DNA of 64,000 nt from an uncultured Cytophagales bacterium (lineage in GTDB: Bacteria; Bacteroidota; Bacteroidia; Cytophagales; Bernardetiaceae), in assembly GCA_964537755.1 (NCBI GenBank), contig CAZIAQ010000002.1, forward strand, positions 43,567 through 107,566. The letters are read 5' to 3'. The notes below the pieces were generated by a model, which was not told where the DNA came from, did no database searches, and was given only the letters and a program-made list of their open reading frames with translations. Position numbers and translations under genes: made by a program. Each line of letters opens with the position of its first letter. Within the stretch, counting starts at the first letter, position 1. Below, piece by piece: positions 9,755 through 55,709 of the stretch.

Positions 9755-11881
9755 ATGCCGCTAAAAACGCTCAAATTTGGAATCATCGGACTGATTATCG
9801 TCCTTTTTAGTACACAAGCCGCCCACCTCAACACCAACGAACCAGAAGACCTCAAAAACAGCATTCTCTTTCGTTCCATTTATCAACTCGTTCAGGGTTA
9901 TCACTACGAGCCCAAAGCCATCGACGACGAGCTTTCGGCGGCCGCCTACCAAACCTACCTCAACAACCTGGACTACAACAAGCGGTTTTTCCTCCAATCC
10001 GACATCGCCGCGCTTTCCACGTACACGTACCTGATCGACGATCAGTTTGCCGAAGGCCGGGATGAGTTCTTGCAGCAATCGCTCCAACGCTTCCAGGCAA
10101 GCCTAACAGCCGTCGCCGAGCTTTCCGAAAAACTTCTCAACAAACCTTTCGATTTTGATAAAAAAGAGTTTTTCGCCTTCGATCCCGACCAACTCGACTA
10201 TCCCGCCAACGAAAAAGAACGCCAGGAACGCTGGCGCAAATACTTCAAATACCAAACCCTAACCCGCCTCTCGGCCAAACTCGACCGCCAGGAAGATGGC
10301 ACCGCCGACGACAAAAAATCATTCAAAGCCCTCGAAGCAGAAGCCCGACAAGAAGTCAAAAAATCCCACGAGGAGTTCTTGCAACGGATGCAAAAACTCA
10401 AAGAAACCGATTGGCTCTCCATGTACGTCAATGCCTTCACGACCCAGTACGACCCACACACCAACTACATGCCCCCGCGCACCAAAGAAAATTTTGACAT
10501 CGGTATGTCCGGACGCCTCGAAGGCATCGGAGCAACCCTCTACGAAAAAGAAGGCTACATCACCGTAGCCAGCATCGTGGCCGGCAGCCCTTGCTGGAAA
10601 CAAGGCGACCTTGAAGTAGGCGACCGCATCACGAAAGTAGCCCAGGGAGACGGCAAGCCTGTCAGCATCCTGGAGGCACGTGTCGATGATGCCGTCAAGC
10701 TCATCCGAGGCAAGAAAGGCACCGAAGTACGCCTGACCGTCTTGAAAGCCGACAACACCGAAAAAATCATCCCCATCATTCGTGATGTCGTTATCATTGA
10801 AGCTACCTATGCCAAATCCGCCCTGTTGGGCCCCCAAAAGAACATCGGCTACATCAAACTACCTAAGTTTTACGCAGACTTCACCCAAAGCGGCGGACGT
10901 AACTCCTCGAGCGATATGCGCCAGGAAACCGAAAAACTCAAAGCAGCCGGCATCGAAGGACTTATCATCGACTTACGCGACAACAGCGGCGGATCGCTCA
11001 ACGATGTAGTCGATATTGTGGGCTTGTACATCGACAAAGGGCCCGTCGTGCAGGTCAAATCAAGAAATGCACAGCCCGAAGCCGTCCACGACAAAACGTC
11101 AGGGGTCGTTTATGATGGCCCTCTCGTCGTGCTGGTCAATGCTTACAGTGCCTCGGCTTCGGAGATCCTGGCCGCTGCCCTCCAGGACTACGGCCGCGCC
11201 GTCATCGTCGGGACAGATTCGGCAACTTTTGGTAAAGGAACCGTACAACGTTTCTACGACTTAGATCAAATGGTGCATCCCAGCTACGATGCCGTCAAGC
11301 CTCTGGGTGCCGTCAAGATGACCTTCCAAAAGTTTTATCGCGTCAATGGCGGAACCACCCAACGCCAGGGCGTACAACCCGACATCGTCCTGCCCAATGC
11401 CCTCTCCCTGGTGCGCAGCAGCGAGCGCGACGAAGCCACAGCCCTAAGCTGGGACGAGATCAAGCCCGCCAAGTACACCCCCATTAAGCCTGCCCTGCCC
11501 ATCGCGCAACTGCGCAGGGAGAGCCTTAGCCGGCTAGCCCAGCAGCCCGAGATGGACAAAATCAAAGCCCACGCCCAGTGGCTCAAAACACGACGTGAGC
11601 AAACCCAATATGCCCTCCATCTCGACACCTACCAAGCAGAGAAAAAAGCCGCCGAGCAGACCTCCAAGACCTTTGCCGTCTTTGAGGAACCCATCCCAGA
11701 GATGCAAATTCATGCCCTCCCCGTCGATGCAAGCGATATGGCCACCGACTCCACCAAGAGCAGCCTCTGGGAGCAGTGGCAAAAGACCGTCGCCAAAGAT
11801 TTTTACTTGTACGAGACCACCCGCATCCTCTCCGACCTCCAGGCGCAAAGACCGTCCATCGTAGATCGAAAAAAACCTTAA
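9755..11881 (+). CDS. Carboxy-terminal processing protease (S41 family, tail-specific protease)
   Basis: Signal peptide. PDZ region. S41 catalytic region NSGGSLNDVV and SASASEILAAALQDYGRAVIVG. Confidence 0.8.
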   Translation: MPLKTLKFGIIGLIIVLFSTQAAHLNTNEPEDLKNSILFRSIYQLVQGYHYEPKAIDDELSAAAYQTYLNNLDYNKRFFLQSDIAALSTYTYLIDDQFAEGRDEFLQQSLQRFQASLTAVAELSEKLLNKPFDFDKKEFFAFDPDQLDYPANEKERQERWRKYFKYQTLTRLSAKLDRQEDGTADDKKSFKALEAEARQEVKKSHEEFLQRMQKLKETDWLSMYVNAFTTQYDPHTNYMPPRTKENFDIGMSGRLEGIGATLYEKEGYITVASIVAGSPCWKQGDLEVGDRITKVAQGDGKPVSILEARVDDAVKLIRGKKGTEVRLTVLKADNTEKIIPIIRDVVIIEATYAKSALLGPQKNIGYIKLPKFYADFTQSGGRNSSSDMRQETEKLKAAGIEGLIIDLRDNSGGSLNDVVDIVGLYIDKGPVVQVKSRNAQPEAVHDKTSGVVYDGPLVVLVNAYSASASEILAAALQDYGRAVIVGTDSATFGKGTVQRFYDLDQMVHPSYDAVKPLGAVKMTFQKFYRVNGGTTQRQGVQPDIVLPNALSLVRSSERDEATALSWDEIKPAKYTPIKPALPIAQLRRESLSRLAQQPEMDKIKAHAQWLKTRREQTQYALHLDTYQAEKKAAEQTSKTFAVFEEPIPEMQIHALPVDASDMATDSTKSSLWEQWQKTVAKDFYLYETTRILSDLQAQRPSIVDRKKP

Positions 11882-11925: not shown

Positions 11926-14900
11926 ATGGGCGAATTAAGAAACGTGTTTATTTCTTACGGACGTCGGGAAAGCAAAGCCTTTGCCAAGCGGTTGTACGAG
12001 CGATTGTGTCCGGGAGGGTATCAGGTTTGGTTCGATCAAAATGACATTCCCTTAGCTGTTGATTTTCAGGATGAGATAGATCAAGGTATCGCTCAAGCCG
12101 ATAACTTCATCTATATCATCGCCCCGCATTCGGTCAATTCTCCCTACTGCGCCAAGGAGATAGAACTAGCCCTACGCCTCCAAAAGCGGATCATCCCGAT
12201 TTTGCACATCGAAGGTTTTGGACAGGAGGTCTGGCAGGAACGCTATCCCGAAGGCAGCCAAGACGACTGGATCGCCTTTCAGGCAACGGGACGGCATAGT
12301 AGCTTTCAGGAGATGCACCCCGAAATTGGCAAGCGCAACTGGGTCTATATGCGAGAGCAGTGCTTGCCCGGAACCGATACTTACCCGCCCATCGACGATT
12401 TCGATCAAGCCTTTGAGGGATTGGTAGCCGTCCTGGACAAACACAAAGACTACGTCCGGCAACATACCCAACTCTTGCAGCAGACCCTTGATTGGGAACG
12501 CCAACAAAAACAAAGTGCGCTCCTCCTGGTAGGGCAAGAACGCCAGGCGGCAGAAGCCTGGATCCTCCGCGACTTTAGCCCCGAGCAACCTCCTGTTTTG
12601 CCCACCGACCTGCACGCGCTCTACATCAGCGAAGCCCGAAAGAACGCCGAAAACCGAATGACCGATGTCTTCCTGACTTGCTCCATGGAAGACCGACGCA
12701 TCCGAGATCGACTCATCCTGGCCCTGGCCCGGCATTGCATCACCACCTGGACACCCGACCGAGACATCGCCCCAGGGCAAACGATGCAGGAAGCCATCCG
12801 AGAGGGCATCGAAAAGGCCGACAACCTCCTCTTTTTCATCGACCCCCACACCCTACAAAATCCCCAGTGCATCGACGAACTCAACTACGCCCGCAGCCTC
12901 AATAAGCGCATCATTCCCATCAAGATTGCCCAACCCAACCAGGAAATCCCCCAAAGCATCCGATACCTCAACTGCATCGACTTCACCGATAACACCGAAG
13001 AGATACACTTTGACGATGACTTCTACCAACTCCTCCAACAACTCCAACACGAGAAAAGCTACCACGAGCGACACAAAATGCTCCTCGTTCAGGCCATCAA
13101 ATGGCAAAACCAAAGCCAAAACCCCAGCATCCTCCTCCGAGGGCATAACCTCCAACGCGCCCAAGCCTGGCTCAAACTCGGCATCCAGCGCAAAACTTAC
13201 CCACCCAACCCACTCCACCAGCAGTTCATTGAGGAAAGTGCCGCCCAAACGGGCAACCTACAAAACATAGACATCTTCATTTCCTACTCCCGCACCGATA
13301 GCGACTTTGCCCGACAGCTCAACGAACGCCTACAAGCCAGCGGAAAAACCACCTGGTTCGATCAAGAAAACATCGAAGAGGGGGTAGCCGACTTCGGCCA
13401 AGAAATCCGAAAAGGTATTGAGCAGTCCGATAACTTCCTCTTTATCATCTCCCCAGATGCCATCGCCTCACCTTATTGCCAGGACGAAACCGAATACGCC
13501 CGCAGTCTCGGCAAACGCATCCTGACCATCCGTTGGCGGCCCCTACATGAGCAGCAACAACTCCCTCCCGCCCTGGCAACCATCCAATGGATCACGCTCC
13601 AGAATGGCTTCGATGCCATGTTCAATCTCCTGATCCGTGCCTTAGAAGTCGATCGTGCCTACGTCATGGCACACAACCGATGGCAGCGCAAAGCCCTCGA
13701 GTGGAGCGGAGGCAACATCACGCTCACCCCCGAGACACCCACCAACGACAGCCTACTCTTGCGCGGCGAAGAACTCAACAACGCCGAAGCCTGGCTCAAG
13801 GAAAGCACCCAAAAGCAGCCCCCCCCTACGACGCTCCAGCAGCAACTCATCCAGGAAAGCCTCCAGGAGAGCCAACGCGACCACAAACGGAGGCAACGCC
13901 TACTCGATCTTAGTATCTTTACCTTTGCTGTTATCATCGCGGGAGGTGTCCTGGCGGTTGTCCAATGGGTAACGGCACTACAAAGCGGCAGCCGGCTAGC
14001 AGCTTATGACCTGATATTCAAGGCAGAGACCATCCTATCCGATGATCCCGAACACGCCCTTCAGCTCGCCAAGACGGCTTATGAAGTCGAAGAAAAAAAA
14101 CATCCCCGCATCTTGAAAGCCTTTTTTGAGATGAGCCAGACGTACCTACAAATCACCCAGGAGGTCAATCAAACCCTGGTTAATCACTTGCCCCACCAGC
14201 ATCCCGTCCTCAACGTGTATCTCGATAACAGCTACGAGCAAAGCCGCTTGCTCACCCGAGATGCCAGCGGTGGTTTGCACCTCTGGAGCCACACCGGAAA
14301 CTATATCCGCACCCTTGTTACACCGCGTCCGCGTCCTTTTTTTAGCCTTGCTGGCAAGAGTACCATTGAGCAGCTTAACATCTTGTATAGCCACCACGTC
14401 AAGGGAGAAGTGCTAGCTGCCGTCTATGAAGACCAGTACGTAATCGCGTACCAGCCCGGCAAGCAACAAATTACCCTTTGGGATGGCAATGGATTACTGA
14501 TTTTTGAAAAGAAAGTAGCGCAAGGTGTCCTACGGGTCGGCTTTGCTTCATCCCTCGATCAAGAATTACAAGTTTTTTGGATAGTCTCCAATTCTCAAGA
14601 CCCCGATGCCGACACCCAAATCTTCTTCGCTGACCGCTCGGGGCAAGTGATCTATGAAGAAAAAGCCTATGAGTCCGTACAGACCGATACGCTCTTCTCA
14701 ACGGCTAGTTATGAACGCAACTCCACGGAAGGTTTGAAAGCCAGTTTTCGTGCCGATGGAAAAAGTATCGACTTGACTTACCCCTGGGAAGATAAAGAGG
14801 AAGTACCAGAAGAGCGGTTTGAGATGTTGGGGCTGCCCGATTTTTGGGGCAATCGTATGCTGCTCCTGGGGCAGGATGGTCTTTTGATCTGGACACCCTA

Positions 14901-16056
14901 CTATTACTTCGCCGATCGCCTAAAAGACATCGCGCCTTTGGATGCCTCCGAAAAAGTGGCTTATGATATTGCCAGCTTAGAGGAATCCTTTCAGGTACCA
15001 GCCGAAGCCGCGTATCAGTTGGCGAAATTGAGTTTGTTTTTGTTGTTTTTTTACTTGTCGGTCATTGCCCTGACGCTACTATACCGGTTGTTTTTGGGGC
15101 GTGAGTATTTGCGTATTGTCGTGTATGCGATCTCGGCTTTGGTGATTGTGGTGTGCTGGAGCCAGTTTTTGGTGTACCGAGACTTCTTTGCGTCTTTGCC
15201 CTTTGCCTACGGTTTATTTTTGTCGGGGGGGATGGGCTATTACTTGTATAGGTCTGCTGATATAGATGCGTTCAAGCGGCTTTTTGGCTGGATAGCGATG
15301 GTGATGCTGGTAGCGGTATCCCTGCTGGGGTTGTACTTTACCTATCCCGAATATAGCTCTCCCTCCGCCCAGACGGTACGTAGGCAGGTGCTTTCGTTGA
15401 TTCTTTTTTTGGGTTTGGCGAAGGTGAGTATTTTTGCGGTGGCATTTTATGGACTTCAACGATTTTACAACAAAAAATACAATCACCTAGCCGATTGGTG
15501 TACGAGCTGGCTGTTTGTGTTGAGTGTTTTTCTGACGGCGGCTTACTTTTATGGCCCAAGTAATGTCCAGGAAAAAGACACCATTCTGGCTGTTTTCTTC
15601 CTGGCCTGGATGCCGCTCTTGTACGTCTTTCGGCTCAATGCGCATCAGTTTGTGCTGGCTCGCCTGGATGGTCGCCGCTCGAGTCGTCGGCTGCTGCGGT
15701 TTTCTACCTGGGGTTTTGTGGGGGTGTTGGTGCTATTGACGGGTGGGTTATTTGTGGATGGGCTAGTTTTTCTTTCACTCTTTTGGTTTGGCTTGTATCT
15801 CTTGATCCTCTACGTGGCTAGTTTTGTGATCGCGATTGTCCAAAAAGACAGGTTTAGTTTGTGGGGCAATATTGGCTCCTCTATTGGCATCTTTGTCCTG
15901 GTTATGCTTTGGGGAACGGAGGCATTGGATCGAAACCAGTTAATTAGGGTGTTTCCGTGGTTGCTCTTGGGGGTGGCAGGGCTTGGTTTGGGTATTTGGC
16001 AGTACAACAAATATCGCCGCAACATCTTGGCCCAACGCGCTGTTGTGGAGGCATGA
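11926..16056 (+). CDS. Membrane protein with three tandem N-terminal TIR domains, a single TM anchor, a 340-aa middle domain and a C-terminal region of about 10 TM helices
   Basis: Three copies of the TIR hallmark: (V/I)F(I/L)SY.R.D...FA..L start, then YCAKEIEL / QCIDELNY / YCQDETEY. Each TIR is followed by an LLRG..L..A..WL helical module. TM segment LSIFTFAVIIAGGVLAVV, then a polytopic C-terminus. Confidence 0.8.
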   Translation: MGELRNVFISYGRRESKAFAKRLYERLCPGGYQVWFDQNDIPLAVDFQDEIDQGIAQADNFIYIIAPHSVNSPYCAKEIELALRLQKRIIPILHIEGFGQEVWQERYPEGSQDDWIAFQATGRHSSFQEMHPEIGKRNWVYMREQCLPGTDTYPPIDDFDQAFEGLVAVLDKHKDYVRQHTQLLQQTLDWERQQKQSALLLVGQERQAAEAWILRDFSPEQPPVLPTDLHALYISEARKNAENRMTDVFLTCSMEDRRIRDRLILALARHCITTWTPDRDIAPGQTMQEAIREGIEKADNLLFFIDPHTLQNPQCIDELNYARSLNKRIIPIKIAQPNQEIPQSIRYLNCIDFTDNTEEIHFDDDFYQLLQQLQHEKSYHERHKMLLVQAIKWQNQSQNPSILLRGHNLQRAQAWLKLGIQRKTYPPNPLHQQFIEESAAQTGNLQNIDIFISYSRTDSDFARQLNERLQASGKTTWFDQENIEEGVADFGQEIRKGIEQSDNFLFIISPDAIASPYCQDETEYARSLGKRILTIRWRPLHEQQQLPPALATIQWITLQNGFDAMFNLLIRALEVDRAYVMAHNRWQRKALEWSGGNITLTPETPTNDSLLLRGEELNNAEAWLKESTQKQPPPTTLQQQLIQESLQESQRDHKRRQRLLDLSIFTFAVIIAGGVLAVVQWVTALQSGSRLAAYDLIFKAETILSDDPEHALQLAKTAYEVEEKKHPRILKAFFEMSQTYLQITQEVNQTLVNHLPHQHPVLNVYLDNSYEQSRLLTRDASGGLHLWSHTGNYIRTLVTPRPRPFFSLAGKSTIEQLNILYSHHVKGEVLAAVYEDQYVIAYQPGKQQITLWDGNGLLIFEKKVAQGVLRVGFASSLDQELQVFWIVSNSQDPDADTQIFFADRSGQVIYEEKAYESVQTDTLFSTASYERNSTEGLKASFRADGKSIDLTYPWEDKEEVPEERFEMLGLPDFWGNRMLLLGQDGLLIWTPYYYFADRLKDIAPLDASEKVAYDIASLEESFQVPAEAAYQLAKLSLFLLFFYLSVIALTLLYRLFLGREYLRIVVYAISALVIVVCWSQFLVYRDFFASLPFAYGLFLSGGMGYYLYRSADIDAFKRLFGWIAMVMLVAVSLLGLYFTYPEYSSPSAQTVRRQVLSLILFLGLAKVSIFAVAFYGLQRFYNKKYNHLADWCTSWLFVLSVFLTAAYFYGPSNVQEKDTILAVFFLAWMPLLYVFRLNAHQFVLARLDGRRSSRRLLRFSTWGFVGVLVLLTGGLFVDGLVFLSLFWFGLYLLILYVASFVIAIVQKDRFSLWGNIGSSIGIFVLVMLWGTEALDRNQLIRVFPWLLLGVAGLGLGIWQYNKYRRNILAQRAVVEA

Positions 16057-30479: not shown

Positions 30480-32672
30480 ATGCAATTACCCGATGAGCCG
30501 ATAGACGACTTGCGCCTATACAAGAAAGCCTTTTTGGAGAAGCAAGCCATTGACGCTGCCATCACACAACTCCAGTCTGCCCTCCATTGGAAGGAAACCG
30601 ATACCACGGAGGGCTGGGGAGCGGGTGTTTTGGCGGTGGTCGCCGAACTGATGGACTTTGCCCAGGGGGTCATCTACGGCTACCACGCCGAACACAGTTC
30701 GTTTGAACCCTTTGCCTATCACACCGAAGCCGTGGAGGAGTGGATGCCCTATCGCAGCTACCGCAATCGGGCCGTGATGCGCTACCAAAAGGAACACCTC
30801 CTGCCTTTTCACACCAACGATGCCGCAGTTATTATTGGGTCTTTCCCGGGCTACACCCCACCCGAAGACCCCACGCAGCAACTTTCTTTGGTCAGTACTC
30901 CCCTGACCTACAACGGACAAATCCACGGCATCCTAGAAATCCTCTGCTCGAGGGAGATTGCCAAACGCGATCTCGAGTTGCTTGGGCGCATGGGACGTGC
31001 CATTGGGTCGCACCTGTACGGGTTGCTCAAAGAGCGACAGTCGCAGTTGGATGTACAACTCATCAACGAGAGCCGCCAAGACCTGGTGCATATCATCGAA
31101 AGCTCGCCTAGTGGGATGATTATTTTTTGGGAAGAAAACGGACGCATTGAGCGGGTCAATAGTGCCATCACCCAGATTTTGGGCTACGCAAAGGTAGAGT
31201 TGCGCTACAACCAATTTGAGCAGTTGGTTTTTCCCGAAGACTACCCCACAAGCGGCGGGCTACCCACCCATCCCGTTGAGTGGCGACTGCTGCACAAATC
31301 GGGGGAGGTCTGCTGGTGCCAAGTGAACTTCTCGAGGGTGCTACAACGCTCCCAACCCATGGTCATTGTGCAGGTACAAGACATCACCGAACGCAAAAAA
31401 GCCGAAGCCGAACTCGAAGCCAGCCGACAAAAGCTAGCCGAAGCCCAACGCCTGGCCCGTATGGGCAGTTGGGAGTGGGATATGGTCAATAACACCGTTA
31501 CCTGGTCGGATGAACTCTACCGCCTCTATGGCTACGACCCCAAAGAGTACCTCCCCGCCTACCACAACTCCTTCAAGCGGGTGCATCCCGAAGACCGCGA
31601 CCGCGTTAGGAGCACCATCCGGCAGGCAATCGAGAAAGGCGATGCCTTTGACTTCTTTCAGCGCATCGTACGGCAAGACGGACAAATACGCATCCTCCAC
31701 TCACGCGGAACCGTCTTGAAGGACAAGGGAGGAAAGCCCATCAAGATTTTTGGGACGGGACAAGACGTAACCGAAACCAAGGCCATGGAGCGCAAACTAC
31801 TCGAACAAGAACGCGCCCTCCAACAAAAACTCGAACGCCAGGTGCAAGAACGCACCCGAGAGCTGCAAGCCGAAAAAGAAAAACTCCAGCAGACCAACAA
31901 CGAAATCCTATCCAGCATGACCTATGCCCGAAGGATTCAGTTGGCGCTACTGCCCCAAAAGAAACAGATCAAAAAGCATCTCTCCGAATTTTTTATTTAC
32001 TACGTCCCCAAAGACATCGTCTCGGGTGATTTTTATTGGTTTGGTGTACAAAACAACCGACAAATTCTGGCCGTCGTCGATTGCACCGGACACGGCATCC
32101 CGGGCGCACTGATGAGCATGATCGGCAATGATCTCCTGAACGAAATCGTCTATCGCCGCGACATCACCGAACCCCAACAAATCCTCGAAGAACTCAACCA
32201 GGGCATCCGGCGCGCCCTACGCCAGTCCACGACCCGCAACCGCGACGGCATGGATGTCGCCCTCTGTACCATCGACTACGCGCAGCAACAGCTCTGTTTT
32301 GCCGGCGCACACAACCCACTGGTCTATGTGCAGGGAGGTGAACTCTTCTATATCAAGGGAGAACGCCGAGCCATCGGGGGTGTACAAAGCGACCAAAGCC
32401 CACCGTTTCGGCAGCACTGTATCTCCATTCGGGAAGAGACGATGTTTTATCTCTTTTCGGATGGCTACCAGGATCAGTTTGGTGGCCCTAAGGGCGCAAA
32501 ATTTATGAGCCGACGCTTTAGGCAACTGCTCCTAGAAATCGCAGCGCGCGATATGGATAATCAGGAGCTAGCCCTGGATCAGCGCATTGGCGAGTGGATG
32601 GGCAATAGCCACAAACAAATCGACGATATTTTGGTGATCGGTGTACGGATAAGCCCTGAAAACAAAGAATAA
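30480..32672 (+). CDS. GAF-PAS-PAS-PP2C (SpoIIE-type) serine/threonine phosphatase
   Basis: N-terminal GAF-like region. Two PAS/PAC blocks (WEWDMVNNTVTWSDELYRLYGY). Coiled coil. C-terminal PP2C block ARRIQLALLP...GDFYWF...DCTGHGIPGALMSMIGN. Confidence 0.7.
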   Translation: MQLPDEPIDDLRLYKKAFLEKQAIDAAITQLQSALHWKETDTTEGWGAGVLAVVAELMDFAQGVIYGYHAEHSSFEPFAYHTEAVEEWMPYRSYRNRAVMRYQKEHLLPFHTNDAAVIIGSFPGYTPPEDPTQQLSLVSTPLTYNGQIHGILEILCSREIAKRDLELLGRMGRAIGSHLYGLLKERQSQLDVQLINESRQDLVHIIESSPSGMIIFWEENGRIERVNSAITQILGYAKVELRYNQFEQLVFPEDYPTSGGLPTHPVEWRLLHKSGEVCWCQVNFSRVLQRSQPMVIVQVQDITERKKAEAELEASRQKLAEAQRLARMGSWEWDMVNNTVTWSDELYRLYGYDPKEYLPAYHNSFKRVHPEDRDRVRSTIRQAIEKGDAFDFFQRIVRQDGQIRILHSRGTVLKDKGGKPIKIFGTGQDVTETKAMERKLLEQERALQQKLERQVQERTRELQAEKEKLQQTNNEILSSMTYARRIQLALLPQKKQIKKHLSEFFIYYVPKDIVSGDFYWFGVQNNRQILAVVDCTGHGIPGALMSMIGNDLLNEIVYRRDITEPQQILEELNQGIRRALRQSTTRNRDGMDVALCTIDYAQQQLCFAGAHNPLVYVQGGELFYIKGERRAIGGVQSDQSPPFRQHCISIREETMFYLFSDGYQDQFGGPKGAKFMSRRFRQLLLEIAARDMDNQELALDQRIGEWMGNSHKQIDDILVIGVRISPENKE

Positions 32673-33576: not shown

Positions 33577-36500
33577 ATGGCACTTGGAGACAACCTCAAC
33601 AAAGATAGTCTGATCCCGCAGGAGAGCCACGCCACCGGCAACGAATGCCAGCAGCTCAAAGCCGCCTTGCACGCCCTTGTGCCTAGCCTCGAGCTAGATA
33701 TGCAAGGACAAATCCTGACCGCCAACGCCCCTTTTGTCCGTTGGCTGGGATTTACCGCCGACGAACTCAAAGGCAAGTCCGAACGCGCCCTACACACCGA
33801 AGCCTTCCGCCAAAACGGACGACACGCCAACGTGTGGGAATCGCTCCGAGGCGGAAAACCCTTTTCGGGAAACTTTGAGTTGATCGACAAAGAAGGACGC
33901 ACCATCACGGCCCAGATCGCCTATACCCCTCTGCTGGATGCCTCGGATCGCCCCTACAAAATCCTCCAACTGATCCAGCCCCTCCAAGACCAGCCCAGCA
34001 TCTCGTCGGACAGCCAGGAAGAGATCGAAAACCAAAAGACCCTCATCCATACCGTGCCAGGGGTCTTGTATCGCTTCGTGGCCCGGCACACGAGCGAGTA
34101 TCTCTTTCGCTACCTTAGCCCGCAGATGGCAGATATTTACGGCGTTCCAGCCGAGGAAGCCCTACAGGATTTCTCCAAAGTGCTGGCGGTGATTCATCCC
34201 GACGACCTACCCGGCGTACAGGCAGCTATCACAGAGGCCGTAGCCAAGCAAGGCTTCTTCGATTATGAGTACCGCATCTTTGTCAAAGACAAAATTCGTT
34301 GGATACGCGCCCAATCACGGGTCGAATACGTAAACGCCGATGAGGTAGAGTTTGTCGGAATTTTTAGGGACGTAACGATCCGCAAAACCGCCCAACTCAA
34401 AGCCGAAACCAACGAGGCAGCCTTCCAGCGCGTCCTGGATACCGTCCCGGGGGTGATCTACCGAGCCAAGCTCAACGCCCAAGGGCTGCCCTATTTCACC
34501 TATCTAAGCCCCTATGCTGAGCAGGTGTTTGGCTATACACCCGCAGAGGTGATGACCAACCCCGAGATGTACTGGAGCTTGATTTATCAGGATGACAAAT
34601 CTGATTTTGAAGCCAAAATGCGCCAATCCATCGCCCAACGAAGTGGCGTAGCGATGGAGTTTCGGATCACGAAGAAAAACGGCGATGTGATCTGGGTCAA
34701 GCTAGACTCCAGCGTCGATCAGGCATCGGAGGAGTACGAGTCTTACGGTATCATCCGAGATGTTACGCCGCGCATCCAAGCCCAGCAGGCGCTCAAAGCC
34801 CAGCAGCAAGATAGCCAGGAGTTGATCGCTACCGTTCCCGGGATCATCTATCGCTTTGAAGTATCCGACGAAGGAACTTCACGGATTACGTTCATCAGCG
34901 AGCAGGTACGGGAGGTCTATGAAGTCGAACCCGAAGCCGCCCTCCAAGATGCCAACACCATGTTTGGCTTGGTTTATCCCGAAGACCTACCCTTGATCCA
35001 GGAGCGGATCACACATTCGATCCAAACCAAGGCACTTTACGACGTAGAGTTCAGGATAAAGACCGCCCAAACACAAACCGAAAAATGGATTCGGGTACAA
35101 TCCAGGGTTGTGCGTCAGCAGGATGGCATCACGGAGTTTGTGGGCTTCCTGCGGGATGTGAGTACACGCCGCCGGATCCAGAACCGCGTAGCAGAAAGCG
35201 AAGAACGCTTCAACCTAGCCTTGCAGGGCAGCAACGACGGCGTATGGGATTGGAACATGCGCACGAACGATATTTTCTTCTCCGATCGCTGGAAAGCCAT
35301 GTTGGGCTATGCCCCGCAAGATATTGCAGATAACTTCGCGCAGTTTCAGGCTTTGGTGCATCCAGAGGACTTCCCCCAGGTAGAAAACGCCCTCAATGGC
35401 TACCTTGCCGGACAGTTGCCCGAGTACGATGTCTCGTTCAGGATGCAACACCAGGACGGCAGCTACCGCTGGATTCGGGCGCGTGGCAAAGCCCTATTCG
35501 ATCCGACGGGCAAGCCCTACCGCATGGCTGGTTCTCACTCCGACATCACCGACATCCGCAACAAACAAATCGCCCTTGAGGAGGCAACGGCTTACCAACG
35601 CGCCGTCCTTGAAAGCGCGGGCTTTGCCGTCGTCTCTACCGATGCCGATGGGGTCATTAACATTTTCAATGAAGCCGCCGAGCGCGACCTGGGCTATACC
35701 GCCGAGGAGATGATCGGTAAGCAAACGCCTGCCTTGATCCATGACCCCGAGGAGGTCGTTGCCCGTACCCACGAACTCAACCAGGAGATGGGACTTGATC
35801 TAAGCCCTGGATTCGAGACCTTTGTTTATCGCACCCGCACGACGGGAAAACCAGACATCCGCGAGTGGCATTACGTCCGCAAAGACGGCAGCAAATACCC
35901 CATCGTGCTTTCGGTAACCGCCGTCCGCAATGCCGCTGGAGAAGTTCTGGGCTACCTCGATATCAGCGAAGACATCAGCGAGCGCAAAGCCAAAGAAAAT
36001 GCCCTCCGCGAAAGCGAGCAACGCTTCAACACCTTCTTTGACCAGTCGATTGACTTGCTCTGTATTGCTGGCTTCGATGGCTACTTCAAGTTCTTGAACC
36101 AAAACTGGATGAACCTCCTGGGCTACACCAAGGACGAACTCAAAGCCCAGCCCTTCATTGAATTTGTTCACCCAGACGACGTAGCCGCTACCCTCCAGGA
36201 GGCCGGCAAACTCGCCGATGGGGCGACGGTTATCTCCTTCGAGAACCGCTACCGCAAAAAAGACGGTAGTTATGTGTGGCTCCAATGGAACTCGGCTCCC
36301 GTCTATGAAAAAGAACTCATCTACGCCAACGTCCGCGACATCACGGAAGAAAAAGCCCGCGAAATCCGCTTCAATCGGCAGAATGACATCCTAAACCGTC
36401 TGCCCATCAATAAAGATGTTCAAGCAGGTAACCGAGACGAAGCCATTCGGGTAATCCTGAGGTCGGTTGCCGAAGGGGTACATGTCGAACGGGCAAGTTT

Positions 36501-39500
36501 TTGGCACTACAACGCCGATCAAAGTTTCATTACGTGTCAGCAACTCTACCAACGCAGCCAACAGCAGTTCTCCAACGACCCTTTGGTGCTGCATCAAAAA
36601 GATTTCCCGTCTTATTTTGCAGCCTTGAAGCGGGGTACGCTTATCGTAGCATCAGAGGCACAAACAGACCCCGACACGCGGGAGTTCACCGAAGGCTACT
36701 TTAAGCCGAATCAAATACAATCTTTGCTCGATGTGCCGGTGCGCTTCAAAGGGGAGATCATGGGTGTTTTGTGCATCGAACACGTAGGATCAACAGCCTA
36801 TCACTGGACAAGCGATGACCAAAAGTTTCTTCGTGCCATACCGGAGATCATCACCTCCGTCATGGAAGCCGAAGAACGCCAACGTCTCGAAGCCGAAATT
36901 CGAGCCAATGCTGCCTTCAACCGCAAACTCTTTGAGGTCTCCAACTACGGGCTGCTCGTCCTTGAAGGGGGGAGTTTTACCAGTGCCAATGCCGCTGCCA
37001 TCGCACTCTTTGGCGGAGAAAAGGCCACAGAGCAAGACATCATCGGCAAAACACCCATCGACTTCTCCCCGACTACCCAACCCGACGGCAGCGACAGTGA
37101 AGCCACCCCCCTGAGGCACATCCAACGCGCCATCGACGAAGGCAGTACACTCTTTGAGTGGCAGCACCTACGAACGGACGGCACGCTATGGGATGCCGAG
37201 ATCAGCCTTATCAGTTTTGACCTGAACGAACGCACCCTGATTCGGGTCTCGATGCGCGATATTACCGAAGAAAAAGCCGCCCGAGAGAAGATCAAAGCCC
37301 AGCAAAAAGAACTCGATGATTACGTCTCGGCCATCAATACCTCCACGATACGTATTGACTTCGATGCCCAACGCCGCGTCATCACGATCAATGACAACTT
37401 TGCCGAGCTGTTTGGCTACACCGAAACCGAAGTTCTGGGCAAAACCCATGACTTCTATGTGGCTAAGGATCAAATCCGAGAGGGTAAATACGATCAGTTA
37501 TGGGACGAGATTGGCAGAGGTGTTTCTTTTGTTCGAGATGCCAAGCGGCTCTCCAAAGCAGGAAAAGAAGTTTGGCTACGGGCTAGTTATATCCCGATAC
37601 TCAATCAGCAGGGGCATCTCGAGCGCGTTACCTGTCTCTGCAACGACATCACCGAACAAAAACAATTTGAACTCGAAGCCAGCCGCCTCCAAGGCGAACT
37701 CGAAGCCCGAATGAAGATCATCGACAAGGTGGCTCTGGTTACTGAAACGGACATCTACGGAACGATCACTTTTGCCAACGAAAAGTTTACGGAGGTCTCC
37801 GGCTACACCAACACCGAAGCCGTAGGCAAACCCCATAACATTGTCCGCCATCCCGATAACCCCAAAGGCATCTACAAGGAGATGTGGGATACGATCAAGG
37901 CCGGTAAGCTCTTCCAAAAGACCATCAGAAACCGCCGCAAAGACGGTACAGATTACTGGGTCGATGCCTCCATTGCCCCCATCCTGAACGAAAAAGGTGA
38001 GATTGTCAAGTATCTGGGCTTCCGTATCGACATCACCGCACAAAAACAACGAGAACTGGAGCTACAACGCCTCCAAAACGAACTCGAGGTACGTCTGAAG
38101 GTCATCAGCAAGGTGGCTCTTCTGAGTGAATCCGACTTGCAAGGGCGCATCACGTATGCCAACGATAAGTTTTGTGAAGTCGCCCAATACACCGAAGCCG
38201 AACTCATCGGTAAGCCGCATAGCATCATCCGCCATCCCGAGACACCCAAAACCATCTTCAAAGAGATGTGGGAAACCATCCAGGCAGGAAACATCTTCCA
38301 GGGAACCTACCGCAACCGCGCCAAAGATGGACGCACCTATTGGGTCGATGCTACGATTGCCCCCGTCCGAGACGAAAACGGCGACATCTACAAGTATCTC
38401 GGCTTCCGCATCGACATCACGGATCGCATCGAACAAACCGCCCGCATAGAAGCCCAAAACTTTGCCATCGGCAAATCCAACGGTACAATCGAACTCTCAC
38501 CCGAAGGGCAAATCCTGGACGCAAACAAAACCTACCTTGACTTTGTGGGCTACACCCGAGATGAACTGATCGGCAAGCACCATAGCTTCCTTTGCAAGCC
38601 CGAGGAGGTCGCCTCACCGAGCTACAAAGAAATGTGGCAAACCCTTCGAGAGGGAAAGACCCTCTTTGGCGACTACCGAAGGATCACGAAGGATAAGCGA
38701 GAGGTTTTCATCCAGGAATCGTTTAGCCCGATCTATGACCAAAGCGGCAACCTGTCCAGCATCCTGACCCTTGCCGTCGATGTAACCCAGCGCAAGCGAC
38801 GCAACGCCGAAAACCGAGGCAAACTTGAGGGGATCAATAGCACCAACATCGTCATAGAGTACGACTTTGAAGGCCGGCTCCTGACCGCCAACGAAAACTT
38901 CCTCCAAACCAGCGGCTATACCCTCGAAGAGGTCATCGGCAAGCCTCACAGTTTCTTCTGCGATCAAAACCACATCAACAGCAGCACCTACCAAGACCTC
39001 TGGAAAAAACTCCGACAAGGAGAAGCCGTTTTTGATACCTACCCCCGTATCGGCAAGGCCGGACAACGCATCTGGCTCGAGGGTAGCTACACCCCCATCA
39101 CGGATGACGACGGACGACTGCTCAAGATCGTCAAGTTTGCTCAGGATGCCACCGAACGCCGCACCCGTAACGCCGAAAACCGAGGCAAGCTCCAGGGCAT
39201 CAACCGGACTAACCTCGTCGTGGAGTTTGATCGAGAGGGGGTTGTCATCTCGGCCAATAACCGATTCCTGGAAGCGATGGGGTACCAGCGTGAGGAATTC
39301 ATCGGGAAGGCACATGCCATGTTCTGTGATGAAGTCTATCGCAACAGCCGCGAGTACCGCGAGTTCTGGGATGACCTCCGCAGTGGTAAGGCACTCTTTG
39401 GGACATACCCGCGCCTAAACAAAGCAGGCAAGCGCATCTGGCTCGAAGGCAACTACACCCCGATCACGGACGGTGAAGGCAACTTCTTGAAAGTTGTCAA

Positions 39501-52798: not shown

Positions 52799-53235
52799 CA
52801 GAAGGGCAGGTCATCCGCGCTGGTGGGCGGGGGCGGAGGCGGGGGCGGGGGTGCGCTGCTTGTTGTTGCGGGCGCGAACGCAGGGCTACTGCTCTCTCCG
52901 GCCGCTGCTTGCAGCGCAAAGACTTTAAGGGAGTTAAACCAACGCATGGGTTCTGACGGCGAGCGTTGCCAACTGCGCCCTTCGATGGCTACGCGGGCCA
53001 GCACCTGGTCGCCTTCCTTGTAGCTATCCAGGAGATCGCATTTGTCCTGGACGAGCTGTAGCAGGATTTCTTGGGGATAACGATCCTCCTCCACGTGCAA
53101 GACAAACTCCCGTTTTTGGAAGCGTTCGGAGACTACCTGCGTATCAAATTTCTTGATGATTTTTCCGGTAATATCAATGGTAGGCATACAGAGAGAATGT
53201 TTTTTTTGAACAAAGGTACAATTTTTTGTGGGCAT
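52798..53235 (-). CDS. DUF3127-family protein with C-terminal polyproline tail
   Basis: Core MPTIDITGKIIKKFDTQVVSERFQKREFVLH resembles DUF3127. Tail APPPPPPPPPTSADDLPF. ATG overlaps the stop of the upstream TIR gene (TGATG). Confidence 0.5.
   Translation of the reverse strand: MPTKNCTFVQKKHSLCMPTIDITGKIIKKFDTQVVSERFQKREFVLHVEEDRYPQEILLQLVQDKCDLLDSYKEGDQVLARVAIEGRSWQRSPSEPMRWFNSLKVFALQAAAGESSSPAFAPATTSSAPPPPPPPPPTSADDLPF
52822..52853. repeat. Imperfect G5C-type hexanucleotide simple repeat encoding the polyproline tract
   Basis: ggtgggcgggggcggaggcgggggcgggggtg; encodes PPPPPPPPP on the minus strand. Confidence 0.6.
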
Positions 53236-55709
53236 CACTCCACGGTAGCTTCCTTAAACTCCTTTTCGATCAACTCGCGCAGGCGTTGCTTGACTGCCGG
53301 ACGAATGACCCCAATGGCAGCCATATCATCGACCGCCCGCTGGAGGTCTTTTTGGGCTTGCTCGAGTTTCTTTCGGAGTTCCTGGAACTTTTCGATCTCG
53401 CGTTGCTCCTGGGCCGAGAGCCTGCTTTTGGCCTGCCGTTCTACCTGTACGCGCTCCCTGACCGCCTGCTGGCGTTGGGAGATGGCGATGCCTGCTTTTT
53501 GGAGGGCGGCTTCGGCATTGGCTCGGGCCGTTTCTACTTCGATTAGGGCATTTTGGAGGCTGATTTCGGCTTCGAGAGATTTCTGGAGGGCGCGTTCGGT
53601 CTCTTCGGTTTTGAGGCGGGCTAGCTTTTCGGCTTCTTCGGCTATGGCTAGGGCGGCACTGGCCTCCGTGGTACGCTTGTAGGCAATGCTGCCAAAGACA
53701 ATGGCCACCAAAAGGGCTACACTGATGATAACCAGGGAGATGTTCTGCCGTCGGACGCGCTTCTGGGCCTCCCGTACACGGGCGCGTTCGAGGTCGAGGA
53801 GGCGACGCTCCTGGGCTTCCTCCTGCTGGCGCGTCCATTCGATGACCTCTTCGCTTTTGGCAATGAAGGATTCCTGGAGGGGGGTGGGGGCGGGTTTTTT
53901 GTTGCGGCGTTTGGCATCTTCGAGCCACTCCTTGGCAATCGTGAACTCACTGCCGCGCAAGAGAAAGTCTTCATTTTGTCCGTTTTGGCTCCACTGGCGG
54001 GCCTCCTGCTCCCATCGGGTGTGGCTACGGACATGATCGCTGTCGGCATCGAGTTGGCGGATGAGCTGACTGAAAGCGTCGTGGAAGTCCATCTTGTCGC
54101 GCTCAAAATCAATTTGCGTGGTTTGGCGCAGGCGGTCAGGCATCTGCCAGGGTGGTACTTCGTCGTAAATCAGGGTGATGATGCGCTTGCCCAGGGTTTG
54201 GGCGTGGGCGAGTTCGGCTTGGGTGTCGGTGTTTTCGACGGATTTTTTGGAGAGGATAAAAACGACGTTATCGGATTCGAGGATAGCCTGCTCTACCTCC
54301 TGACGGAAGCCCTCGGAGGAGTTGGTGTTGATGGTTTCTTGATCGAACCAGGTGTTTTTGCCGTGGATTTGTAGTTCTTCGTTGAGCCGTCGGACAAAAT
54401 CGCCTTCGTTGGAGGCATAGCAAAGAAAAACATCGGTGCGGATTTGTCCTGTCTTGAGGAGGCTTTCCTGGATGAAATCTCGGTGGAGTTGGGTGGGCTT
54501 ATGGTCGGCTCTGCGTTCGCCGATGTCGAGCCAGGCTTGGGCTTCTTGGAGGGATTGCCCCTGGAGCAAGATGCTATCGTTGCGGTTTTGTTGTTCCCAC
54601 TTGAGGGCGCGGGCTAGGAGTATTTTGTGTTGGTGGTAGTAGGTTTGGTCTTTTCTGATTTCCTGGATCAGGTCTCGGATGTCGATCTGGAAATGCTCTT
54701 CGTTTTCGTTGTCCGTGAAATCGACGCGCTTGAGGGAGCGCACCGAGCGGGGGATTTGGTAATCGTCCACAAACTCCACGAGCAGGGGGATGATACGCTT
54801 TTGGTTCTTGATCGCTGTTTTGAGTTCTTTGAGGCACTCGACAGAAACGACGGACTCGGTGGAAAGAAAAAAGATGAAGTTATCCGAATGCAGGATACCC
54901 GTCTTGGCGGCATCGCGGGCGCGTTGTCCGGTTTTGATGTCGGCTTCTGTCCAGGTCGTGATGCTTTTGCGGTGCAGGGCGGCCGTGATCTGCTCCCGTA
55001 GCCGGCGGTCGGCGGGCGGGGAGGAGATAAAGACATCGGCCATGAGGTTTTCGGCGTTCTTTCGGGATTCGCAGATGTACTCGCATTGTAGGTCGGTGGG
55101 TAGGCAGGGGGTTTGCTCTTTGCGAAAATCCGTCAGGAGCCATTTGAGGGCTTGTTCACGGTCGTCTCCGGCAAGTAAAAACTGGGGGCGACGTTGGTTT
55201 TGGTTCCAGCGGATGGCTTCATTGAGGATATAGGTATGCCAGGCGACGTACTCCTGGTTGCTCTGGAGAACAGCTTTGAGTGCATCAAATGCTCTGGCAA
55301 AGTCGTCGATGTCCTCCCACTGTTCAAGGGGAAGATTGGGATCATACTGCTGCCTAAAGTACAGCCAGTTGAGCTTCGAGATCGTGGGGTGCATCTGATC
55401 CCAGTCTTCTTTTTGCTGGGGTTCGATGTGCAAAATCGGGATGATGCGCTTACCCAGCCGGATGGCTTGCAGAATTTCTTTGAGGCAATAAACAGAGCGT
55501 AGGGCGTGCGGGGCGATGATAAAGATGAAGTTGTGGGCCTCCTGAATGCCCTGGTCGATTTGGGTCTGGAAATCTACCGCCAGCGGGATGTCATTCTGAT
55601 CGAACCACACGGCATAATCCTCTGCCCTTAGCCAGTCGTGGATTTTGGTAGCGAAGGCTTTGCTTTCCGCGCGACCATAGGAGATAAAAACATCTTTGAA
55701 ATCCGACAT
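53235..55709 (-). CDS. Membrane-anchored protein with three tandem TIR domains and a C-terminal coiled coil (paralog of 11926-16056)
   Basis: N-terminus VFISYGRAESKAFATKI...VWFDQNDIPLAVDFQ...YCLKEILQ is nearly co-linear with the other TIR gene. Second and third TIRs follow (ECLKELKT, TQAELAHA). Then a TM segment ISLVIISVALLVAIVFG and an Ala/Glu/Gln-rich coiled coil. Confidence 0.8.
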   Translation of the reverse strand: MSDFKDVFISYGRAESKAFATKIHDWLRAEDYAVWFDQNDIPLAVDFQTQIDQGIQEAHNFIFIIAPHALRSVYCLKEILQAIRLGKRIIPILHIEPQQKEDWDQMHPTISKLNWLYFRQQYDPNLPLEQWEDIDDFARAFDALKAVLQSNQEYVAWHTYILNEAIRWNQNQRRPQFLLAGDDREQALKWLLTDFRKEQTPCLPTDLQCEYICESRKNAENLMADVFISSPPADRRLREQITAALHRKSITTWTEADIKTGQRARDAAKTGILHSDNFIFFLSTESVVSVECLKELKTAIKNQKRIIPLLVEFVDDYQIPRSVRSLKRVDFTDNENEEHFQIDIRDLIQEIRKDQTYYHQHKILLARALKWEQQNRNDSILLQGQSLQEAQAWLDIGERRADHKPTQLHRDFIQESLLKTGQIRTDVFLCYASNEGDFVRRLNEELQIHGKNTWFDQETINTNSSEGFRQEVEQAILESDNVVFILSKKSVENTDTQAELAHAQTLGKRIITLIYDEVPPWQMPDRLRQTTQIDFERDKMDFHDAFSQLIRQLDADSDHVRSHTRWEQEARQWSQNGQNEDFLLRGSEFTIAKEWLEDAKRRNKKPAPTPLQESFIAKSEEVIEWTRQQEEAQERRLLDLERARVREAQKRVRRQNISLVIISVALLVAIVFGSIAYKRTTEASAALAIAEEAEKLARLKTEETERALQKSLEAEISLQNALIEVETARANAEAALQKAGIAISQRQQAVRERVQVERQAKSRLSAQEQREIEKFQELRKKLEQAQKDLQRAVDDMAAIGVIRPAVKQRLRELIEKEFKEATVE

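Follow-up and report, generated by a model that had tools for sequence, protein, structure and literature searches.

The 64,000-nucleotide stretch of DNA analysed here (the window) encodes two proteins, A and B, in which each of three TIR domains is followed by a further conserved segment, which we call the module. The initial annotation had given positions 11926-13900 for the six copies of this repeat. This span does hold the copies of protein A, whereas those of protein B lie ∼40 kb away on the opposite strand. The features, with the amino acid (aa) ranges of each protein, are as follows.

11926..16056, forward strand: protein A, 1376 aa; three TIR-module units, a transmembrane helix and 686 C-terminal aa without Pfam match (ORF, Pfam)
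11938..12438, forward strand: A TIR 1, type 1 (aa 5-171); AlphaFold2 (AF2) secondary structure from E5-10 to H159-171, our own TIR HMM 1.4e-47
12445..12648, forward strand: A module 1 (aa 174-241); M1 174-192, M2 203-213, M3 228-241 (AF2); module HMM 78 bits
12661..13047, forward strand: A TIR 2, type 2 (aa 246-374) (Pfam, AF2, own TIR HMM)
13054..13248, forward strand: A module 2 (aa 377-441); M1 377-395, M2 406-420, M3 429-441 (AF2); module HMM 83 bits
13267..13647, forward strand: A TIR 3, type 3 (aa 448-574) (Pfam, AF2, HMM); alignable to the AbTir, SARM1 and Cat1 TIR domains
13654..13866, forward strand: A module 3 core (aa 577-647); M1 577-593, M2 614-629, M3 from aa 636 (AF2); module HMM 60 bits
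13867..13983, forward strand: continuation of A helix M3, KRRQR-rich, into the transmembrane helix (aa ∼661-686); a single helix over aa 636-686 (AF2)
12520-12567, 13129-13182 and 13753-13806, forward strand: motifs LLLVG, ILLRG and LLLRG, respectively, of A
53235..55709, reverse strand: protein B, 824 aa; three TIR-module units, then a putatively helical spacer, a transmembrane helix and a charged, repetitive C-terminal stretch
55263..55697, reverse strand: B TIR 1 (aa 5-149) (pairwise alignment to A, own TIR HMM)
55053..55256, reverse strand: B module 1 (aa 152-219); module HMM 80 bits
54654..55040, reverse strand: B TIR 2 (aa 224-352) (own TIR HMM)
54453..54647, reverse strand: B module 2 (aa 355-419); module HMM 88 bits
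54048..54434, reverse strand: B TIR 3 (aa 426-554) (own TIR HMM)
53847..54041, reverse strand: B module 3 core (aa 557-621); module HMM 77 bits
53682..53846, reverse strand: B charged spacer (aa 622-656) and transmembrane segment ISLVIISVALLVAIVFGSIAY (aa 657-676) (sequence)
55128-55181, 54519-54572 and 53913-53966, reverse strand: motifs FLLAG, ILLQG and FLLRG, respectively, of B

Each protein contains three Pfam TIR_2 (PF13676) stretches (E 1.6e-72 for A and 1.2e-63 for B), with scores of 242 and 213 bits against a curated cut-off of 28. The two are collinear and share 42% identity over their first ∼660 residues, and a six-frame scan of the window found six TIR domains, six modules and nothing further above noise. 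The six motifs quoted in the initial annotation were all found letter for letter, three in A and three in B. A is identical to NCBI protein P0156 and B to P0256, a 'TIR domain-containing protein [Bernardetiaceae bacterium]'. The hydrophobic stretch of A, LSIFTFAVIIAGGVLAVVQWV, has KRRQR on its N-terminal side. By analogy with A, the spacer of B at aa 622-656 is probably helical. No domain was recognisable by Pfam in the C-terminal part of either protein; the charged, repetitive stretch that ends B looks like a coiled coil.

The TIR units of A and B have the flavodoxin-like alpha/beta fold with five strands, running from betaA-alphaA to betaE-alphaE, and TIR 1 of A carries an insertion specific to type 1 in the betaD/alphaE interval. 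Alignment-based AlphaFold2 modelling of A 1-700, along the lines proposed in the initial annotation, gave a compact and confident model (pLDDT 93.7, pTM 0.85) that superseded a single-sequence model of unit A3 (pLDDT 50.6). Every unit consists of a complete TIR fold, closed by alphaE, and three extra helices, M1-M3, that form a module separate from the canonical fold. Since the LLRG motif is the turn that precedes M2, after alphaE, it is not part of the TIR fold; the longer pattern LLRG..L..A..W corresponds to this turn together with helix M2. In the last unit of A, the model shows M3 and the membrane helix as a single unbroken helix. Superposition of solved TIR structures on the model was limited to 113-131 residues, and in this comparison no solved chain spanned a TIR domain plus module; the top structural matches include the Hydra TRR-2 and MyD88 TIR domains. 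The pTM of 0.85 is indirect evidence for a fixed arrangement of the units. Mean-field covariation analysis of 1152 units yielded no module-TIR contacts, its top pairs being artefacts of gaps and unit type.

The module comprises ∼65 residues. A stretch of about 60-80 residues ending in the motif had been described; the stretch is indeed conserved, but the motif marks the turn between M1 and M2 rather than the end, and ∼40 conserved residues follow it. Conserved blocks shared by the six units are F..L..L (in alphaE), Y...H..L...A..W, LL.G..L..A..W and P..L...FI..S, a similarity confirmed to be far beyond chance. A profile built from the six modules, as had been suggested, was run exhaustively against 1.84 billion sequences and identified 6355 cluster representatives at E<=1e-3, of which 3088 passed E<=1e-10; a word-indexed profile search with the same modules returned five fragments only. 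The best-scoring matches contain 3-7 module copies. On the wider alignment (1164 units from 334 proteins) the motif held up as part of a conserved block, with the two Trp retained in 99-100% of units, the His in 98-99% and the LL pair in 94-100%, and the conserved module was found in Cyanobacteria, Bacteroidota, Gammaproteobacteria and Gemmatimonadota. The family thus delimited has thousands of members, among cyanobacteria, relatives of Beggiatoa and Thioploca, and gliding Bacteroidota. Searches of the module alone against Pfam and PADLOC, and of the module profile against PDB sequences, gave nothing significant, and an NCBIfam scan of whole A and B revealed no family covering the module region, with the sole exception of a weak anti-sigma match (E 0.014, A aa 616-692). 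The small domain delimited here is thus missed by the Pfam, NCBIfam and PADLOC libraries, and our literature search found no account of it or of the tandem-TIR family. Identity with EACC1 (Kaur et al. 2020) was ruled out because EACC1 is a transmembrane-helix domain, whereas the module is a soluble three-helix repeat that follows TIR and has no caspase neighbour.

The supposition that a single fixed unit is iterated three times did not hold. The three units are non-equivalent paralogues, types 1, 2 and 3, in a conserved order: 219 of the 334 proteins have the order 123 and 55 have 12123, and seven-unit forms also occur. The type 3 unit always adjoins the membrane helix. A catalytic-type Glu (the E78 column) is invariant in the six TIR domains of the window and is kept in 98, 91 and 90% of type 1, 2 and 3 units, respectively. 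It lies in alphaC and, in alignment, corresponds to E208 of AbTir, the Glu in the 'WTNYE' motif. Since this residue is retained in each TIR domain of A and B, each is presumably an NAD+-cleaving enzyme; across the family, its conservation suggests an enzymatic rather than a scaffolding TIR.

Nearly all of the top 150 profile matches share with A and B a (TIR-module)n array that leads into a hydrophobic helix. In the family plan a variable outer domain comes next. In 303 of 325 proteins the hydrophobic helix lies no more than 120 aa from the last module (median distance 11 aa). The downstream domains include WD40, CHASE2, FGE-sulfatase, dCache and WG repeats, or give no Pfam match; a single-unit protein of Agrobacterium has the order TIR-module-TM-WD40-Peptidase_M23. 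CHASE2, dCache, SBP_bac_3 and M23 are extracytoplasmic domains, and in relatives they lie C-terminal to the membrane helix. The KRRQR cluster is on the N-terminal side of the A membrane helix, consistent with the positive-inside rule. These features suggest that A and B may be single-pass proteins with the N-terminus inside and the C-terminus outside.

The evidence points to a role for the module as rigid connector or in juxtamembrane coupling, rather than in ligand binding, and the module probably joins the TIR array to a membrane-spanning sensor part. We consider the chances somewhat better than even that each of A and B is a stand-alone membrane receptor encoded by a single gene, with the TIR triad as output and with the module connecting the TIR domains and coupling them to the outer part. 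The cytoplasmic N-terminal part would then be a hard-wired array of TIR types 1, 2 and 3, with the internal modules acting as rigid connectors that set the relative placement of adjacent TIR domains. Since M3 of the last unit runs into the transmembrane helix, the last module would couple the periplasmic part mechanically to the triad, such that a change outside would pass through M3 and the membrane helix, shift the TIR domains and trigger the cleavage of NAD+. The covalent triad would take the place of the NTPase- or ligand-driven TIR clustering of other systems.

We also considered that modules of different chains might pair, in the manner of a coiled coil or HAMP domain, and so cluster the receptors and their TIR arrays. 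The usual position of the module, beside a membrane helix, is a frequent site of dimerising elements in bacterial receptors; TIR enzymes generally require assembly, and in STAND proteins the region that follows the NTPase is involved in it. However, the monomer is already compact and confidently modelled, and the next TIR domain starts only 2-6 residues after each internal module, a spacing that fits a connector within the chain, and we judge inter-chain pairing to be distinctly improbable as the role of the module.

The module had been viewed as an accessory of TIR, a view that did not survive the wider comparison. P0034 contains module copies with no TIR domain, and the module consensus matches, along the full module length, NTPases of the nSTAND1 clade (PF20703; named by Kaur, Iyer, Burroughs & Aravind, eLife 2021, PMC8195603). 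Mapping with Pfam placed these matches at and just beyond the end of PF20703. Since the PF20703 model stops inside M1, Pfam does not define the module as a domain of its own. Comparison of the module with the nSTAND1 C-terminal tail by hhalign gave a probability of 98.2% (E 3.7e-14, 66 aligned columns) for an nSTAND1 set that had first been picked via the module consensus and so carries a selection bias. Among 11 nSTAND1-like proteins chosen by their NTPase domain alone, 10 had the module just downstream, with HMM scores of 5.5-33 bits, several of them weak; the eleventh gave no HMM match, but visual inspection revealed residues resembling the module where the retrieved DNA ends. Because the HMM scores are modest (5-33 bits), this sample removes the selection bias only in part. 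By these sequence comparisons the module is a homologue of the nSTAND1 C-terminal tail and is not specific to TIR, and it is best explained as an independent, mobile domain.

In the nSTAND1 proteins the module occupies the same place, usually before a membrane helix that is followed by a WD40, PD40 or SBP domain. Some copies, as in a Microchaete caspase protein and an ATP-binding (nSTAND1) protein of S. clavuligerus, have no membrane helix nearby, so the juxtamembrane site is frequent but not obligatory. Like the family of A and B, the nSTAND1 proteins occur in filamentous cyanobacteria, and they are found in actinomycetes too. Their N-terminal effector may itself be a TIR domain, as in a Caballeronia protein with the order TIR-NTPase-module-TM-WD40. 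A and B differ in that they lack a P-loop NTPase, with no match to PF20703 at E<=0.1, and in that the module directly follows each TIR domain and is iterated with it. No solved structure of an nSTAND1 protein was found by sequence.

This distribution bears on two further explanations. The M1 His, near-invariant in TIR-linked copies (98-99%), varies among H, E, Q and W in the four nSTAND1 copies compared, which hints at a TIR-specific contact such as might be made by an autoinhibitory cap. Here, in line with the gating suggested in the initial annotation, the module would cover the BB-loop/active-site face of a TIR domain, either its own or the following one, until an outside signal freed the NADase. 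A chain with three TIR domains all competent for catalysis would require a safety catch, and the compact model (pTM 0.85) is compatible with a module packed on TIR. Nevertheless, the nSTAND1 copies of the module sit behind an NTPase and those of P0034 are linked to no enzyme, so TIR capping cannot be its general role, and our reading of the conservation patterns places the conserved positions on single helix faces, as in the core of a bundle. We therefore regard a cap as unlikely. Helix-face periodicity of mainly hydrophobic conserved residues would also suit a passive spacer, duplicated along with TIR and conserved for folding only, and we saw nothing indicative of a catalytic or binding site. 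If the module were no more than a spacer, its length and sequence should have drifted; Trp, His and LL, however, are kept at 94-100% in three paralogous types across the four groups named above (Cyanobacteria to Gemmatimonadota), the module is held at the same position in nSTAND1, another protein class, and TIR-less copies persist (P0034). A passive spacer thus appears to be a very remote prospect.

Returning to the receptor reading, in which the module connects and couples, we tentatively extend it, as a possibility about which we are more doubtful than confident, to a large, hitherto unstudied class of surface receptors that would combine an extracytoplasmic sensor (WD40 propeller, CHASE2, FGE-sulfatase or other), a membrane helix, a dedicated three-helix transducer and a covalently pre-assembled TIR hetero-trimer activated within the molecule, its fixed 1-2-3 triad making unnecessary the clustering by NTPase or ligand on which all characterised TIR systems depend, and the transducer being shared with STAND receptors as an outside-in cassette of filamentous, multicellular-type bacteria. 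The module ties TIR arrays and nSTAND1 NTPases, two large predicted classes of conflict or signalling proteins, to membrane-spanning sensors, and its definition should improve the annotation of thousands of proteins labelled only as 'TIR domain-containing' or 'WD40 repeat' protein.

TIR enzymes of bacteria, plants and animals are understood to be activated by bringing many single-TIR chains together. The characterised proteins that we compared, namely AbTir, the SARM1 TIR, ThsB, TIR-SAVED, TIR-STING, Cat1 and the SPARTA TIR-APAZ, have one TIR per chain and become active through assembly of many chains on a ligand, filament or sensor domain. In contrast, A and B place three different TIR domains in one chain with folded connectors and a membrane anchor, and none of the characterised TIR proteins found here shares the TIR-module layout, in agreement with the initial annotation. 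With 3-7 different TIR domains in one membrane-anchored chain, the family offers a compact system for studying TIR-TIR geometry in relation to activity.

A single chain in which one membrane helix separates an outer repeat-rich or ligand-binding domain from a cytoplasmic TIR recalls the Toll-like and interleukin-1 receptors of animals. In the family of A and B, however, the order is reversed, with TIR N-terminal and the sensor C-terminal, and there are 3-7 TIR domains combined with WD40, CHASE2, FGE-sulfatase or other domains, rather than one TIR combined with LRR or Ig. We found no evidence for common descent of the two architectures.

The Thoeris ThsB/ThcB4 scores were 100.8 and 50.9 bits against an NCBIfam equivalog cut-off of 220, and the NCBIfam models for Thoeris ThcB4 and retron-TIR scored far under their cut-offs. 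No ThsA, CD-NTase or Argonaute partner gene lies near A or B. The PADLOC profile PDC-S66, for which a literature search found no experimental information, aligned to B aa 334-500, that is, module 2 and TIR 3 (E 6.7e-20), and the bSEFIR profile gave a weak match to B aa 424-797, reaching from TIR 3 into the C-terminal stretch (E 2e-6). In both cases the TIR part accounts for the match; the modules alone match neither profile.

A and B are best explained as stand-alone genes. A tail-specific protease gene lies 45 bp upstream of A, but a functional link was rejected because homologues in Bernardetia and on a related metagenome contig have other neighbours. A phage origin was likewise rejected, as a phage collection contained no match. 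The genes seem to be inherited vertically and stably in a housekeeping setting, which is unusual for an anti-phage system; the proteins may thus have a biological role other than defence. The neighbours are housekeeping genes that are not conserved among the homologues, and they encode, besides the tail-specific protease, an MpaB-like oxygenase, CutA, a FolP-type protein, HisG, SpoIIE and a nitroreductase.

The six motif strings that the initial annotation quoted were all found exactly, within two proteins of the window that each carry three Pfam TIR_2 domains.

11926-16056, + strand: protein A, 1376 aa, ORF with three Pfam TIR_2 domains
12520, 13129 and 13753, + strand: motifs of protein A, exact string matches
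53235-55709, - strand: protein B, 824 aa, ORF with three Pfam TIR_2 domains
55128-55181, 54519-54572 and 53913-53966, - strand: motifs of protein B, exact string matches

The interval originally given for both proteins (11926-13900) covers protein A but leaves out protein B. A six-frame scan of the window returned exactly six TIR domains and six copies of the element following them, here called the module. The first ∼660 residues of A and B are collinear with 42% identity, whereas the units inside one protein have diverged beyond detection by BLASTP, and the triplication is therefore old, older than the split between A and B. When the six units were aligned, conservation reached well past the motif first noticed, in the block order F..L..L, Y...H..L...A..W, LL.G..L..A..W and P..L...FI..S.

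The expectation that the module would be a conserved block among homologs was borne out by an exhaustive search of 1.84 billion cluster representatives with a profile of the six modules, which identified 6355 proteins at E≤1e-3 (3088 at E≤1e-10), the top scorers having 3-7 module copies each. From 334 fetched proteins, annotated with our own TIR and module HMMs, we took 1164 units, in which the Trp ending the first module helix (M1) is conserved in 100%, the Trp of the second (M2) in 99-100%, the M1 His in 98-99% and the LL pair in 94-100%. The module alone matched no model in Pfam or PADLOC, its profile matched no PDB chain, and NCBIfam searches with whole A and B left the module region empty except for a weak anti-sigma match (E 0.014) at A aa 616-692. 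Family proteins are named in their source databases just “TIR domain-containing protein” or “WD40 repeat protein”. The module is a small domain without delimitation in Pfam, NCBIfam or PADLOC. We noted that the PADLOC candidate profile PDC-S66 aligned to protein B aa 334-500, that is module 2 and TIR 3, and that the bSEFIR profile aligned weakly to B aa 424-797, from TIR 3 through the module and membrane helix into the C-terminal stretch; a module related to this one may be present in these defence candidates.

Single-sequence structure prediction was uninformative. A model of A residues 1-700 built from an alignment of 123 three-unit homologs was very confident (mean pLDDT 93.7, pTM 0.85), and in it every unit shows the full succession of TIR strands and helices, ending with αE, followed by three extra helices.

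Helices of the protein A model (aa)
Unit 1: αE (TIR end) 159-171; M1 174-192; M2 203-213; M3 228-241
Unit 2: αE (TIR end) 359-374; M1 377-395; M2 406-420; M3 429-441
Unit 3: αE (TIR end) 562-574; M1 577-593; M2 614-629; M3 from 636

Since the three helices come after the terminal αE, the module is not part of the TIR fold; the original observation was correct, and its structural interpretation held up for the most part. In unit 3 a single unbroken helix spans aa 636-686, so that M3 passes without a break into a hydrophobic membrane segment at ∼aa 661-686.

The initial annotation described one fixed unit iterated three times. A TIR plus a module does recur each time, but the units are of three non-equivalent types, each with its own consensus in both TIR and module. 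Assigning every unit to its best match among the six window units, we found the order 1-2-3 in 219 of the 334 proteins and 1-2-1-2-3 in 55, while seven-unit proteins showed 1212123 and 1232123. The membrane-adjacent unit is always type 3, and the single unit of an Agrobacterium plasmid protein is also nearest to this type. Nearly all copy numbers are odd (3, 5 or 7) and even ones are rare, which together with these orders suggests that expansion proceeds by adding pairs of units, type 3 staying beside the membrane. A catalytic-type Glu in αC is invariant in the six window TIR domains and kept in 98% of type 1, 91% of type 2 and 90% of type 3 units; it aligns with the Glu of the AbTir WTNYE motif (E208). 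From this conservation and alignment, all three TIR domains look catalytically competent. Type-1 TIR domains also have, family-wide, an insertion of ∼40-65 residues between βD and αE that is absent from types 2 and 3 (A aa 94-158; window 12205-12399, + strand), with short helices of its own and a conserved HSSF..MHPEIGK.NWVY signature.

Among the 150 best representatives, nearly all consist of (TIR-module)n and then a hydrophobic helix. Such a helix lies within 120 residues of the last module in 303 of the 325 proteins having enough sequence beyond it (median distance 11). The part beyond this helix is variable: WD40 propellers are commonest, CHASE2 typifies cyanobacterial proteins with five units, FGE-sulfatase, dCache and WG repeats are found as well, and the Agrobacterium protein reads TIR-module-TM-WD40-Peptidase_M23. 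The A and B types have no recognisable domain there. CHASE2, dCache, solute-binding and M23 domains work outside the cytoplasm. Because relatives carry such domains and a KRRQR cluster precedes the membrane helix of A, the TIR array is probably cytoplasmic and the C-terminal part periplasmic. Protein A aa 691-1376 (window 13996-16056, + strand) has no Pfam match and comprises a ∼350-residue soluble-looking stretch and then many hydrophobic segments, apparently a polytopic membrane region; this half is kept in the 1390-1420-aa A-type orthologs of Bernardetia and related Bacteroidota. In protein B, aa 677-824 (window 53235-53681, - strand) form ∼150 charged, Ala/Glu/Gln/Arg-rich, coiled-coil-looking residues past the membrane helix, without a globular sensor domain, in contrast to relatives with WD40 or CHASE2. 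B-type orthologs (823-837 aa) are conserved throughout Bernardetia.

Two lines of evidence argue against the module being an accessory of TIR. One three-unit protein (P0034) has two additional TIR-less modules between membrane helices of its C-terminal part (aa 746-801 and 871-937), and the module is therefore able to stand alone. In addition, a TBLASTN search of plasmids with the consensus of the type-3 module gave full-length matches to Streptomyces and cyanobacterial proteins variously annotated as helix-turn-helix, WD40, caspase, CHAT or substrate-binding, which Pfam identifies as nSTAND1 (PF20703) STAND NTPases, a name from Kaur et al. 2021 (PMC8195603). In these, M1 falls within the last ∼28 positions of PF20703 and M2 and M3 in the ∼40 residues past its end; the proteins continue with a hydrophobic helix, after which comes WD40 or SBP_bac_3. 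The relationship was supported when profiles of 48 diverse TIR-linked and four nSTAND1-linked modules were compared (probability 98.2%, E 3.7e-14, 66 columns). Since these four had originally been found with the module itself, a second sample was drawn with the NTPase domain as the sole query, and in 10 of its 11 proteins the module HMM matched just downstream of the NTPase with modest scores (5.5-33 bits) and the pattern W...LYRG..L..A...L...E..FL..S, a hydrophobic segment following most matches. The eleventh gave no HMM match, although inspection by eye showed module-like sequence just before the fetched DNA ends. The module is a mobile domain, probably with a connector or coupling role, and this wider distribution alters its meaning. 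In the searchable literature we found neither the nSTAND1 tail described as a separate domain nor any account of the multi-TIR family.

A protein on plasmid pNK84 of Caballeronia sp. NK8 (fetched locus L009, 2399-6742) combines a TIR, a P-loop nSTAND1-like NTPase, the module, a TM helix and a long WD40 array, and is a possible intermediate between nSTAND1 receptors and NTPase-less TIR arrays; its gene adjoins a ParDE toxin-antitoxin pair. Plausibly, an effector-NTPase-module-TM-sensor protein lost its NTPase to give the TIR-module-TM-sensor form still seen in Agrobacterium, and the TIR-module unit later expanded, giving forms with three, five and seven copies.

The module is thus a folded three-helix domain after every TIR, common to nSTAND1 proteins and usually abutting a membrane helix, and the whole three-unit region was modelled as a single confident body. 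Most likely, modules would act as rigid connectors that hold the three TIR domains in a set geometry relative to one another, and the last one would link the array mechanically to the parts in and beyond the membrane, so that an outside event would shift the arrangement of the triad and thereby activate NAD+ cleavage. Being covalent, the triad would then substitute for the clustering that single-TIR systems obtain from filaments or NTPase oligomerisation. Rival possibilities are an autoinhibitory cap or an inter-chain oligomerisation element; a passive spacer is unlikely because the module is conserved and re-used in another protein class. We regard the family as bacterial TIR effector proteins with a new architecture, rather than as a system of a new kind.

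The family occurs in filamentous cyanobacteria, Beggiatoa/Thioploca relatives, Bernardetia, Flexithrix, other Bacteroidota and Gemmatimonadota, with A-type and B-type orthologs both present in Bernardetia genomes. Protein B is identical to the database protein P0256, which places the window in a Bernardetiaceae MAG. Its genes stand alone amid housekeeping genes, with neighbours varying among homologs; few plasmid copies were found, and a phage collection gave no matches. This stable chromosomal context is atypical for mobile defence islands, and defence, programmed cell death in filaments and envelope signalling are all candidate roles. The gene of protein A is preceded, 45 bp upstream, by the end of a tail-specific (S41, Prc-type) protease gene of the same strand (window 9755-11881, + strand), an adjacency that is probably coincidental since the pairing is absent from two homologous loci (L001 and L002). 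Elsewhere in the window, a 2434-residue methyl-accepting chemotaxis-type protein with ∼12 PAS domains, GAF and HAMP (33577-40881, + strand) lies slightly upstream of a CheA-like kinase (Hpt, H-kinase_dim, HATPase_c, CheW; 42113-43894, + strand). There are also two SpoIIE-type (PP2C) phosphatase genes (55817-57337 and 30480-32672, both + strand), one divergent from the protein B gene and the other with PAS domains.
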